A DNA stretch of 64,000 nucleotides from Escherichia coli (GTDB lineage Bacteria; Pseudomonadota; Gammaproteobacteria; Enterobacterales; Enterobacteriaceae), in NCBI RefSeq assembly GCF_011045215.1, contig NZ_CP049201.1; one strand, written 5' to 3'. This document shows positions 42,238 through 43,498 of this stretch, in pieces; position 1 is the stretch's first letter, and each line of letters opens with the position of its first letter. The notes beneath the pieces are model-generated. The model searched no databases. It saw only the letters and a list, made by a program, of their open reading frames with translations, and was not told the DNA's origin. A program made the translations under genes and the position numbers.

Positions 42238-43230
42238 ATGAAAACTCACGATGTTGACAGCCTCTGGGATAATCTGATGGATGAGTATTTTTTTTGTAAG
42301 TCGTTACGGAGAGCCACGGAGTGGAGTTATCGCAAGGTGTTGTCGGGGTTCCGGAAGTTTGTTGGTTTTCACCGGACTCCTGACAGCATTGTTCGTCGTG
42401 ATGTTCAGGAATGGCGTCGTTTTGTGCTGAAAGATCAGGGGTTAACTTCCCATACCTGGAATAACAAGGTGAGGCATATGCGTGCGATTTATAACTTTGG
42501 AGAAGAATCTGGGTTGATCACTGTTTCAGAAAATCCTTTTAGTGGCATGCTGGTTAAGCAGGAAAAAAGACGGAAGAAAACGCTGACAAAAGCACAGATC
42601 TCGCGGATTGTGCTTATTCTGCAACAATTTTCGGAAGCAGAAAATCAGTACACCGGACTTTATATCAAATGTGCCATAAGGCCAGCGTGGTTCTGGCTGA
42701 CGGTGGTGAATACCCTGCGTTACACCGGTATGCGTCTGAATCAGTTGCTGCATTTACGCCTAAAGGATGTTTGTCCGGCAGAAAAATGGATCGATTTACG
42801 GGCTGAAGGTAGTAAAACTCACAGAGAATGGCGTATTCCGGTTGCGCGTCAGTTACAGCCACAACTGCAGAAACTACTGGATGAAGCCGTCAGACGGGGA
42901 GCCACACCGGAAGACTATCTTTTCCACTACAAGCGTTTTGTTGTGCCGGTGTCAGAAGCAAAACGTATAACGGGTTTGCCGGATGAGCAGCCTGTGAAAT
43001 CGTTTTTCCGCAGATTATCTCAGGAGTGTGGTTTTCAGGTGTCTCCACATCGTTTCAGACATACACTGGCGAGTATACTGATGAGCACTCCGGAGCGTAA
43101 TCTTCACCTGGTGAAAAACATGCTCGGACACCAGAACGTATCAACCACAATGGGATATGTGGAGATGAATCTGGAGATTGCCGCACAGGCACTGGAGCAT
43201 GAACTGGAGGTGTTCACTGACAGGCTGTAA
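42238..43230 (+). CDS. int: Tyrosine integrase (phage-integrase family), 330 aa, adjacent to tRNA-Phe
   Basis: C-terminal catalytic-like motifs HRFRHTLAS (H-x-x-R), LGHQNVSTTMGYV (His and candidate Tyr); lies 193 bp from the tRNA 3' end. Confidence 0.85.
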   Translation: MKTHDVDSLWDNLMDEYFFCKSLRRATEWSYRKVLSGFRKFVGFHRTPDSIVRRDVQEWRRFVLKDQGLTSHTWNNKVRHMRAIYNFGEESGLITVSENPFSGMLVKQEKRRKKTLTKAQISRIVLILQQFSEAENQYTGLYIKCAIRPAWFWLTVVNTLRYTGMRLNQLLHLRLKDVCPAEKWIDLRAEGSKTHREWRIPVARQLQPQLQKLLDEAVRRGATPEDYLFHYKRFVVPVSEAKRITGLPDEQPVKSFFRRLSQECGFQVSPHRFRHTLASILMSTPERNLHLVKNMLGHQNVSTTMGYVEMNLEIAAQALEHELEVFTDRL

Positions 43231-43285
43231 TCGCAGACAGATTGACAATCCACTGAAGGGTTGTAATCATATATAGTGATCGAGA

Positions 43286-43316
43286 AAAGGGAGCATGCGG
43301 CAAACATGCTCCCTTT
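43286..43316 (+). terminator. Strong hairpin after the integrase gene (12-bp stem AAAGGGAGCATG / CATGCTCCCTTT, loop CGGCAAA)
   Basis: Seen directly, 56 bp after the int stop. Confidence 0.55.
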
Positions 43317-43422
43317 CGAGAAGAAAAATCATGATGTACATGAACCAGACTCACGACATCTGACACCTTCCCGATGACACCCGTCAGGTTTCTCACTCCT
43401 GACCAGTGGCTTTGATGTAAGG

Positions 43423-43498
43423 TGGTGCCCGGACTCGGAATCGAACCAAGGACACGGGGATTTTCAATCCCCTGCTCTACCGACTGAGCTATCCGGGC
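43423..43498 (-). tRNA. pheU: tRNA-Phe (anticodon GAA)
   Basis: The reverse complement reads GCCCGGATAGCTCAGTCGGTAGAGCAGGGGATTGAAAATCCCCGTGTCCTTGGTTCGATTCCGAGTCCGGGCACCA, the canonical E. coli tRNA-Phe; pheU is inferred from the yjdC/dsbD context. Confidence 0.95.

Follow-up and report, generated by a model that had tools for sequence, protein, structure and literature searches.

A region at pheU of Escherichia coli that is very probably the attR terminus of an SPI-7/ICEEc2/SGI-4 group ICE carrying its own 330-aa integrase

We analyzed a 64,000-nt stretch of Escherichia coli DNA (the window) that contains the junction between a short integrase gene (int) and a tRNA-Phe gene. As shown in Table 1, a UvrD-like helicase, a MobH-family relaxase and the integrase follow one another on the plus strand, and the intact pheU gene lies on the opposite strand, with its 3' end (43423) facing the int stop codon across a gap of 192 nt. 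The relaxase scored 206.8 bits against TIGR03760 (cutoff 161.4), and its actual start probably lies closer to the stop codon of the helicase gene, in line with the UMNK88 annotation. The type IV secretion system (T4SS) core in the window was of the PFGI-1/ICEclc type and included TraD (TIGR03754), a TraC-like ATPase (TIGR03744), and matches to TIGR03747, 03749, 03752, 03755, and 03756. The relaxase, helicase, and T4SS ORFs were all full length. The element thus has, at its right end, the trio of helicase, MobH relaxase, and integrase together with an MPF_G T4SS core, as is typical of SPI-7/ICEEc2/SGI-4-type elements. Its cargo includes an AraC-type regulator, an EAL protein, and an autotransporter. 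A scan for known RNA families across 42100-43700 at E <= 1 returned the tRNA alone.

Table 1. Coordinates in the window of the genes and sequence features discussed in the text.
Feature	Coordinates	Strand	Basis
Internal Integrase_1-family ORF	21851..22753		Pfam Integrase_1 9.5e-54, Phage_int_SAM_2 9.3e-23
UvrD-like SF1 helicase, first of the helicase-relaxase-integrase trio	39042..40622	+	Pfam UvrD-helicase, UvrD_C, UvrD_C_2
MobH-family (TraI_2) relaxase, PFGI-1 class	40534..42180	+	TIGR03760 ICE_TraI_Pfluor 3.1e-61; Pfam TraI_2, TraI_2_C
Integrase, simple Xer-like IntKX-type tyrosine recombinase, 330 aa, last ICE gene	42238..43230	+	Pfam, catalytic residues, homologues
Candidate outward sigma-70 promoter (P_out): -35 TTGACA 43242-43247, 17-nt spacer, TG-extended -10 AATCAT 43265-43270	43242..43270	+	Consensus scan
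Conserved hairpin: outer stem 43280-43319, core stem 43287-43297/43305-43315 (11 bp), 7-nt loop	43280..43319		Fold and covariation
attP-arm block beside the tRNA end, inverted repeat GTCAGG (43383-43388)/CCTGAC (43398-43403)	43380..43419		Family alignment
attR identity segment: tRNA-Phe 3' 49 nt (acceptor end, T arm, to anticodon loop + 3 nt)	43423..43471		UMNK88 repeat, circular relatives
tRNA-Phe(GAA), pheU, intact, convergent with int	43423..43498	-	ARAGORN; Rfam RF00005 68.3 bits; identical to K-12 pheU

The junction was located by comparison with the empty pheU site of E. coli K-12. Identity breaks exactly at 43423, the tRNA 3' end, and the genes downstream of the tRNA are those of the E. 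coli pheU neighbourhood (dicD/yjdC, dsbD, cutA, dcuA). The same element, ~65.5 kb long, is found at pheU of E. coli UMNK88, with ~97% identity over the junction region and 98% over int. The UMNK88 element is bounded at both ends by a direct repeat of the identical 49 bp of the tRNA 3' part, TGGTGCCCGGACTCGGAATCGAACCAAGGACACGGGGATTTTCAATCCC, and the genes at its start are named by PGAP as ParA, 'SPI-7-type island replicative DNA helicase', ParB, and proteins of the STY4528 family. In pSGI4 and in the Citrobacter record, both circular, the same 49 bp lie between int and parA, as attP. The one-strand order in circular pSGI4 and pRHBSTW-00903_3 was UvrD-TraI-Int, the 49-bp tRNA-Phe segment, and then ParA-DnaB-PI-ParB, and UvrD-TraI-Int was also found in this order in a pheV element of a chicken E. 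coli. UMNK88, pSGI4, and the Citrobacter record all have the ParA, DnaB-PI, and ParB module. By estimate from the UMNK88 comparison, the window starts inside the element, ~18.9 kb short of the expected left end, and the module lies outside it, at the same estimated distance upstream. Two probes allowing up to 3 mismatches matched the tRNA alone in the 64,000 nt; a second copy of the tRNA 3' end (attL) is absent from the window because the window begins inside the island.

These results agree with a first-pass annotation of this DNA, which had placed an island terminus here, with the tRNA-Phe 3' end as attachment site, an integrase reading towards it, and no second copy of the tRNA end within the window. 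They indicate that the region is very probably the right-hand (attR) terminus of an SPI-7/ICEEc2/SGI-4 group ICE inserted in pheU, and that the 330-aa integrase is the element's own. This group belongs to the pKLC102/PAPI-1/ICEHin1056 lineage, with an MPF_G T4SS and a MobH relaxase. We infer that the integrase would act on two matching 49-bp sequences, attP in the circular form and the 3' 49 nt of tRNA-Phe in the chromosome. Exchange would most likely take place at the anticodon loop, where identity stops, and the tRNA gene would be restored on integration by the 49-nt copy that the ICE carries.

The class of the integrase was determined from its domains and homologues. Pfam Phage_integrase (PF00589) matched residues 116-311 (E = 5.8e-19; 68.9 bits, cutoff 27.1), and a weak N-terminal match to a SAM-like core-binding domain covered residues 14-86. 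The catalytic residues R166, K193, H271, R274, H298, and Y307 are all in place and do not vary among the 20 sequences of a family alignment, so that the protein has the PF00589 domain, the R-K-H-R-H/W pentad, and the tyrosine nucleophile of the tyrosine recombinase superfamily. Since these two domains occupy 14-86 and 116-311 of 330 aa, there is no room for an arm-binding domain. In its length, in this architecture, and in reading towards the junction, it differs from the integration module of the ICEclc/PAGI-2 type with its large IntSXT/P4-like integrase. IntB13 of ICEclc belongs to another class of integrases and is far larger. The search found 367 homologues; the integrase's own cluster contains 308 member sequences at 99% identity, the next cluster is 65% identical, and family lengths range from 312 to 343 aa. 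Among named IntKX members of the pKLC102/PAPI-1 and ICEHin1056 types, the pKLC102 integrase was 38% identical over residues 13-313 (E = 2e-62) and that of ICEHin1056 was 30% identical. The pKLC102 protein has 427 aa, the excess being a C-terminal tail of ~129 aa. A core-binding plus a catalytic domain is the simple architecture of the IntKX subgroup (Roche 2010; Smyshlyaev 2021), which comprises the recombinases of PAPI-1, ICESb2, and ICEEc2 and is associated with MPF_G (PMC8138268). Lack of a detectable Xis is a further mark of the subgroup. By this architecture and by homology to named members, the window integrase is assigned to the IntKX class. The terminus with its short integrase is an instance of this already known class of simple integrases in MPF_G elements.

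The solved structures closest to the integrase were XerA (5hxy) and a Xer-like protein (4a8e), and its top NCBIfam matches were the XerA, XerC, and XerD models. We considered whether the terminal ORF is a Xer-like resolvase, acting for example on circle multimers, and integration is carried out by the internal Integrase_1-family ORF. This second recombinase-like ORF is conserved in UMNK88, and two recombinase genes have been reported in SGI-4 (PMC6543542) and ICEKp2 (PMC6761156). However, the scores against the equivalog models, 73.2 bits for XerC (cutoff 335), 71.7 for XerD (329.6), and 84.5 for XerA (220), were all far below the cutoffs; across the Xer models they were 67-85 bits against cutoffs of 220-335. 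The position of the terminal ORF beside the att site is also fixed across the family. ICEEc2 and ICEKp2 integrate in tRNA-Phe, and excision of ICEKp2 requires int2a but not int2b (PMC6761156). The placement of the deletion primers in that study implies that int2a is the terminal integrase beside the att end; this is our own reading and is not stated by its authors. In addition, a passage of PMC8138268 cites the integrases of PAPI-1 and other members of the subgroup as needed for mobilisation. A resolvase role for the terminal ORF is therefore highly improbable.

Gene order around int was compared among related loci. In 58 of 65 loci, the gene immediately preceding int on its strand was that of the MobH/TraI relaxase, and many loci had a helicase homologue (52-75% identity) ~1.7-1.9 kb before int. 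Downstream sequence was available for 72 loci, of which 49 had a nearby tRNA, and this was a convergent tRNA-Phe(GAA) in every case (49/49). No full tRNA was found within 1.5 kb downstream in the other 23; in six of these, int was closely followed by a partial or diverged copy that had the expected orientation, and in a seventh such a copy lay ~6.6 kb away. The identities of int and TraI were correlated (Mantel r = 0.51, 0/2000 permutations), a correlation that could partly mirror common host phylogeny. The closest integrases (60%) were paired with the closest relaxases (46-47%) and helicases (70-75%). By the synteny of these loci, TraI(MobH), Int, and a convergent tRNA-Phe form the standard layout of this ICE lineage.

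These comparisons bear on the origin of the integration module. The first-pass annotation had pointed out that the integrase is shorter than the large integrases of PFGI-1/ICEclc-type elements, which holds against pKLC102, and had suggested that the integration module may differ in origin from the T4SS core. If so, the short integrase and the att site would have been gained separately, with a phage or some unrelated island as the source, which would make the element a recent chimera. The recombinase class is indeed unlike that of ICEclc. The recombinases of MPF_G elements are of either the IntSXT or the IntKX type, and the two types differ in the side of the recombinase gene on which MPF_G lies (PMC8138268). 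The closest cluster beyond that of the window integrase is just 65% identical. However, the TraI-Int adjacency, the uniform convergent tRNA-Phe, and the co-divergence of Int with TraI all argue against a separate gain. The mobH-int order at the element end was also present in Pseudomonas pKLC102 and Haemophilus ICEHin1056, and the integrase was closer to its pKLC102 counterpart (38%) than the relaxase was (30% and 23%). In a tblastn search of a plasmid collection with the integrase, the matches were mostly ICE-like and conjugative records. The integrase thus falls in the ICE family to which the T4SS core belongs, and the suggestion of a different origin was not sustained; a recent chimera is very unlikely.

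We then considered whether the element is a fixed, immobile remnant whose integrase end is a functionless relic. The left end is not visible within the window, and the cargo is unlike that of UMNK88, indicating rearrangement. Some members of the lineage showed neither excision nor transfer (review PMC2704930), and ICEKp2 excises but transfers poorly (PMC6761156). Against this, int is intact with all catalytic residues and is 99% identical to the cluster of 308 members, the relaxase, helicase, and T4SS ORFs are full length, and the elements of the arm between int and the tRNA, described below, are all conserved. The window int allele was found in 27 of 5426 complete E. coli genomes, and it occupied pheU in some genomes and pheV in others. 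This distribution implies apparently recent site-specific movement. A remnant is therefore unlikely.

The 192 nt between int and the tRNA were examined for non-coding elements. P_out points at the att junction and matches 10 of 12 consensus positions in addition to the TG. Each of the 52 family sequences (52/52) had a perfect TTGACA within the 90 nt that precede the hairpin, compared with a background of 0.023 per 90 nt. In these 52 counterparts, the spacer was 17 nt in 49 and the extended TG was present in 40, and there were 33 distinct spacer sequences. In circular pSGI4, no sigma-70-like site other than this counterpart lies between int and parA. Coding constraint was ruled out as an explanation for the TTGACA conservation, since the motif is not part of the int ORF either in the window, where 49 nt separate the int stop codon from the hairpin, or in the Xenorhabdus loci, where 130-189 nt do. 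A 10-codon ORF after P_out was rejected as the stretch is not conserved. The motif TTGACA-N17-TAATGT exists in pKLC102 but fails the promoter scan, and therefore we confine the conservation of an outward promoter to Enterobacterales.

A strong hairpin between the integrase and the tRNA, also noticed in the first-pass annotation, was confirmed by folding and covariation. The 121-nt stretch containing it had an MFE of -38 kcal/mol (z = -4.4), and none of 200 shuffles folded as well. All 52 sequences examined had a hairpin, and in 51 its distance to the tRNA 3' end was 103-142 nt; in the locus L066 it was placed at 155 nt, probably by a mis-pick. Compensatory changes occurred in 7 of 9 pairs, with 94.2% paired cells compared to 81.2% in shuffles and 27 double-change cells compared to 6.6. 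On family average, 4.9 of 9 positions were A in the 5' flank and 3.4 of 9 were T in the 3' flank. A scan of both strands of the window for canonical terminator consensus did not call the hairpin, because the T-run lies partly within the extended stem. Owing to the flank composition, and because the corresponding hairpin of pKLC102 was called as a minus-strand terminator, the hairpin is probably a terminator facing the tRNA, and it is possibly bidirectional.

The block beside the tRNA end was the best-conserved non-coding block of the family alignment. Its inverted repeat covaries: relatives have GTTAAG/CTTAAC, and the pair 18-41 is UA in 29 sequences and CG in 13. Paired cells amounted to 88.2%, compared to 81.7% in shuffles and 22-55% in slid controls. 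A check of the arm by eye for the IHF consensus gave no convincing match.

Taken together, the conservation of these three elements suggests, tentatively, that the stretch between int and the tRNA is an organised arm with a promoter, a terminator, and an inverted repeat, and not a spacer. In the integrated element, int is the last gene of the co-directional helicase-relaxase-integrase trio, reading towards the junction. In the circular form, parA would come next on the same strand, followed by dnaB-PI and parB, and the outward promoter would drive parA solely after circularisation. The hairpin would end transcription coming in from the tRNA gene and would replace the native pheU terminator, which would be left at attL, and the covarying inverted repeat would adjoin the att core. 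The hairpin starts ~2-3 nt past the predicted start site of P_out, so efficient plus-strand termination by it would prevent P_out from driving parA. Both proposed functions, of P_out and of the terminator, can hold only where plus-strand termination at the hairpin is weak or under regulation.

We also propose, as a possibility that we regard as rather doubtful, that the 192 bp form a conserved regulatory cassette in all enterobacterial ICEs of the SPI-7/ICEEc2/SGI-4 type. In such a cassette, an excision-sensing promoter would serve parA, dnaB-PI, and parB. The hairpin would insulate int from the strong tRNA promoter and supply the displaced pheU with a new terminator, and the inverted repeat could be a site for an accessory recombinase or a regulator, or part of oriT. 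No description of this cassette was found in the literature examined. If true, the cassette promoter would be an excision-sensing switch resembling Pcirc of ICEclc, for maintenance genes instead of the integrase.

On these results, a short integrase reading towards the tRNA is the standard mark of the IntKX-bearing branch of MPF_G ICEs and not of module exchange. This allows confident annotation of similar enterobacterial termini, whether at pheU or at pheV, with the tRNA-Phe 3' 49 nt as attR and attL expected beside parA. The arm elements may serve as handles on how expression of maintenance genes is coupled to excision and on how the target tRNA gene is kept functional. The elements are widespread and carry virulence and metal-resistance cargo.

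Among the known systems, ICEEc2 (E. coli BEN374) and ICEKp2 (K. pneumoniae) share with the window element the tRNA-Phe target, a PAPI/pKLC102-type backbone, and a terminal simple tyrosine recombinase. Their presumed relatives have integrases 59-65% identical to that of the window at the protein level; the window integrase falls in a separate cluster, and the cargo differs. The chicken-associated E. coli element, probably ICEEc2-like, has the same UvrD-TraI-Int-tRNA-Phe end, but it carries type IVB pilus genes beside the helicase, which the window element lacks. SGI-4-like elements insert beside phe-tRNA, and SGI-4 circularises and transfers (PMC6543542). pSGI4 has the same end and attP as the window element, with int, a promoter-like site, a hairpin, an inverted repeat, the 49-bp tRNA-Phe segment, and parA. 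SGI-4 differs in its integrase (~51% identity) and in its cargo of copper, silver, and arsenic resistance, where the window element has the AraC-type regulator, EAL protein, and autotransporter.

In pKLC102/PAPI-1/PFGI-1 and ICEHin1056, a MobH relaxase followed by the integrase likewise stands at the element end and ParA is the first gene; pKLC102 and ICEHin1056 are typed MPF_G and MOBH. PFGI-1 has 49-bp repeats across the T and anticodon loops, like the 49-bp att segment of the window, and the pKLC102 hairpin after int reads as a terminator facing the att side, as it does here. The Pseudomonas elements, however, target tRNA-Lys instead of tRNA-Phe, and pKLC102 differs in its integrase tail, in having no outward promoter that passes the scan, and in the hairpin lying before and not after the TTGACA motif. 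ICEclc shares a related MPF_G core (TIGR037xx), integration in a tRNA gene, and an outward end promoter that gains its target on circularisation. Its integrase gene is a different one, intB13, and the outward promoter that drives intB13 after circularisation lies at the end of ICEclc opposite to it (PMC2704930). In the window element, by contrast, the candidate promoter follows int, and parA would come to lie downstream of this promoter on circularisation.

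The integrase gene int and tRNA-Phe(GAA), the sole tRNA of the window, are separated by a 192-nt arm. Because the tRNA gene is on the minus strand and ends at 43423, its 3' end faces the int stop codon across this arm, and the convergent gene pair confirms the first-pass annotation that a 330-aa integrase reads towards the tRNA 3' end. The int product contains a Pfam Phage_integrase domain (residues 116-311, E = 5.8e-19) and a weak core-binding SAM-like match (residues 14-86). When int was aligned with 19 homologues, all six tyrosine-recombinase catalytic residues (R166, K193, H271, R274, H298, and Y307) were invariant. 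The 367 homologues found are mostly Enterobacterales proteins of 312-343 aa. Chromosomal XerC or XerD was ruled out, since scores against the NCBIfam Xer models were far under the cutoffs. The class to which int belongs is already named in the literature as IntKX, a subgroup of simple, Xer-like recombinases present in PAPI-1, ICESb2, and ICEEc2 and associated with MPF_G systems (PMC8138268).

Features of the integrase-tRNA junction, in window coordinates
Feature	Position	Strand	Details
Integrase ORF (int)	42238..43230	+	330 aa
P_out, candidate sigma-70 promoter	43242-43270	+	TTGACA 43242-43247, 17-nt spacer, TG-n-AATCAT 43265-43270
Hairpin	43280-43319 (outer stem)		11-bp G+C-rich stem 43287-43297 / 43305-43315; fold z = -4.4
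Conserved block with inverted repeat	43380-43419		about 40 nt; adjoins tRNA end / att core
tRNA-Phe(GAA)	43423..43498	-	Rfam 68.3 bits
attR (right junction)	43423-43471		49-bp repeat

We aligned the window with the empty pheU site of E. coli K-12, and identity reached the exact tRNA 3' end, with none past it. Downstream, the chromosomal side carries dicD/yjdC, dsbD, cutA, dcuA, aspA, and the remaining E. coli pheU neighbourhood. The same element is present at pheU in E. coli UMNK88, with approximately 97% identity over the junction region and 98% over int and the spacer. That element is approximately 65.5 kb long, and its first genes encode ParA, an 'SPI-7-type island replicative DNA helicase', ParB, and STY4528-family proteins. 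TGGTGCCCGGACTCGGAATCGAACCAAGGACACGGGGATTTTCAATCCC is found at its left junction and duplicates 49 bp of the tRNA 3' part perfectly, across the T arm and as far as three bases past the anticodon loop. The identical 49 bp also separate int from parA in two circular records, pSGI4 (Salmonella) and a Citrobacter 'plasmid'; both records evidently represent related elements in their excised form. This sequence evidence from UMNK88 and the circular relatives supports the tRNA-Phe 3' end as the attachment site, as the first-pass annotation had proposed. Recombination by Int between attP, the junction of the circular form, and the tRNA would take place in or close to the anticodon loop, the point where identity stops, and the 49 bp carried by the ICE would then rebuild the tRNA gene after integration.

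No extra copy of the tRNA-Phe 3' end was found in the window with up to 3 mismatches allowed, in agreement with the earlier reading by eye. Window position 131 corresponds to a point 19 kb inside the UMNK88 element, so the missing left repeat is expected approximately 18.9 kb before the window start, which explains its absence. A small integrase pseudogene remnant, yjdQ, was observed just past the pheU 3' end in K-12 (4192-4354 of the K-12 locus, L002). It is also annotated in UMNK88, outside the left junction of the ICE, and points to a different island having occupied this hotspot earlier. The int allele (at least 95% nucleotide identity) occurs in 27 of 5426 complete E. coli genomes, at pheU or pheV, and a 73%-identical allele is found in approximately 32 further E. 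coli genomes, many from chickens. In one carrier of the latter, the helicase-relaxase-integrase end recurs at pheV beside type IVB pilus genes, and this element is probably ICEEc2-like.

Upstream of int lie a MobH/TraI relaxase of the 'PFGI-1 class' (TIGR03760, 3.1e-61), preceded by a UvrD-like helicase, and, farther upstream, the full TIGR037xx 'integrating conjugative element' protein set, including TraD (TIGR03754) and a TraC-like ATPase (TIGR03744), which are part of an MPF_G-type conjugation core. The helicase and relaxase ORFs as listed overlap by 89 nt (40534-40622). In the UMNK88 annotation the relaxase starts 8 nt ahead of the helicase stop codon, which suggests translational coupling and a traI start in the window later than the one listed. 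A low-GC cargo segment (28535-39008; 35-49%) is not in the UMNK88 element; its products are an AraC-type regulator, a protein with an EAL domain, an autotransporter of 850 aa (minus strand), and a protein of 741 aa without a Pfam match. At its position UMNK88 has a nucleotidyltransferase, ThiF, MPN, and SAVED set that looks like a CBASS-type defence system.

The first-pass annotation also suggested that the integration module may have a different origin from the T4SS core. We examined 80 loci from species-representative genomes, 72 of them with at least 600 bp downstream of int and 65 with at least 2.5 kb upstream. A TraI homologue was directly upstream of int on the same strand in 58 of the 65. 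A tRNA lay within 1.5 kb of int in 49 of the 72, and in all 49 it was tRNA-Phe(GAA), encoded on the opposite strand at a distance of 210-430 bp from int. In 37 elements, pairwise integrase identity tended to rise with pairwise relaxase identity (Mantel Spearman r = 0.51; 0/2000 permutations as high), and the two nearest integrases (60%) pair with the nearest relaxases (46-47%) and helicases (70-75%). Beyond Enterobacterales, integrase identity was 38% to Pseudomonas pKLC102 and 30% to Haemophilus ICEHin1056, both of which end with mobH and, after it on the same strand, int, as in the window. pKLC102 has ParA as its first gene, and the integrase (38%) is better conserved towards it than the relaxase (30% and 23%); the surplus length of its 427-aa integrase comes solely from a C-terminal tail of approximately 129 aa. 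These results contradict a separate origin, as the integrase falls with the same ICE family as the conjugation core, and the integration module is native within its own lineage. MPF_G elements bear either IntSXT-type or IntKX-type recombinases, on opposite sides (PMC8138268), and the integrase arrangement of ICEclc differs (PMC2704930). This deep, already known dichotomy underlies the earlier impression.

Several Xenorhabdus genomes have two or three integrase-relaxase ends (three loci in X. stockiae). Many copies among the Xenorhabdus and Photorhabdus loci (L031-L073) are not followed by an intact tRNA-Phe; downstream of three there is a partial, diverged copy (4 mismatches in 30 nt), and no tRNA-Phe copy was detectable downstream of the others. 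Possible explanations are tandem arrays, decay of the site, or use of an alternative target. An enterobacterial-type TraI-Int end (51% identity) on a 2.5-kb contig of a MAG labelled Erysipelotrichia (Firmicutes) is most likely binning contamination.

Three non-coding features of the arm are kept among relatives whose integrases are just 43-60% identical. The candidate promoter P_out lies immediately after int and faces outward. In 52/52 sequences a perfect TTGACA was present at most 90 nt upstream of the hairpin, where the background expectation is 0.023 per 90 nt; 49 of them have a 17-nt spacer and 40 an extended TG, with 33 different spacer sequences. Coding constraint does not explain this motif, since in the window and in Xenorhabdus loci it is not part of the int ORF. 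Many loci have a second conserved motif, TT(T)ACA, that precedes the -35 by approximately 5-6 nt and might serve as an operator or UP-like element. In pSGI4, P_out is the only sigma-70-like site from int to parA, and no such site was found between the repeat and parA at the integrated left end of UMNK88.

The strong hairpin that the first-pass annotation saw between integrase and tRNA folds far better than shuffled sequence (0/200 shuffles as good). A hairpin is present in 52/52 sequences, and in 51 the distance to the tRNA end is 103-142 nt. Its stems vary in sequence yet compensate, with double changes in 7/9 pairs (27 double-change cells vs 6.6), and 94.2% of alignment cells were paired vs 81.2% in shuffles and 35-55% in slid controls. 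With a 5' flank that is A-rich (mean 4.9 of 9) and a 3' flank that is less T-rich (3.4 of 9), the hairpin seems better suited to terminate minus-strand transcripts arriving from the tRNA; the scan calls its pKLC102 counterpart a minus-strand terminator. The native pheU terminator in UMNK88 (7289-7314 of the attL-side locus, L003), GGACCTCC...GGAGGTCC with a T-run after it, remains at attL beside the 49-bp partial tRNA copy, approximately 65 kb from the intact tRNA gene, which makes a replacement terminator on the ICE side plausible. The inverted repeat reads GTCAGG / CCTGAC in the window and, with compensation, GTTAAG / CTTAAC in most relatives (88.2% of cells paired vs 81.7% in shuffles and 22-55% in slid controls). 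The repeat may act as an accessory recombinase or regulator site, belong to the tRNA 3' trailer, or represent oriT.

In the circular form the order on one strand is int, P_out, hairpin, inverted repeat, att, and parA. The predicted P_out start site is 2-3 nt ahead of the hairpin, so a model of the arm in which P_out would reach parA only after circularisation needs a hairpin that is leaky or regulated in the plus direction. The logic resembles that of Pcirc in ICEclc, but there the gene driven is the integrase (PMC2704930).

A second tyrosine-recombinase-like ORF of 300 aa was observed inside the ICE (21851-22753, plus strand). It matches Pfam Integrase_1 (PF12835, 9.5e-54) and Phage_int_SAM_2 (9.3e-23) and no NCBIfam model, and a counterpart is kept in UMNK88. 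Two recombinase genes are likewise reported in each of ICEKp2 and SGI-4. ICEEc2 and ICEKp2 integrate at tRNA-Phe, and ICEKp2 excision needs int2a and not the second recombinase gene (PMC6761156); from primer placement, we infer that int2a is the gene adjoining the att end. For SGI-4-like elements the insertion site is next to phe-tRNA, and SGI-4 itself forms a circle and is transferred (PMC6543542). The terminus is an ordinary attR end of an uncharacterised member of a well-described ICE family, in which only the conserved candidate promoter, hairpin, and inverted repeat of the arm may not have been described before.
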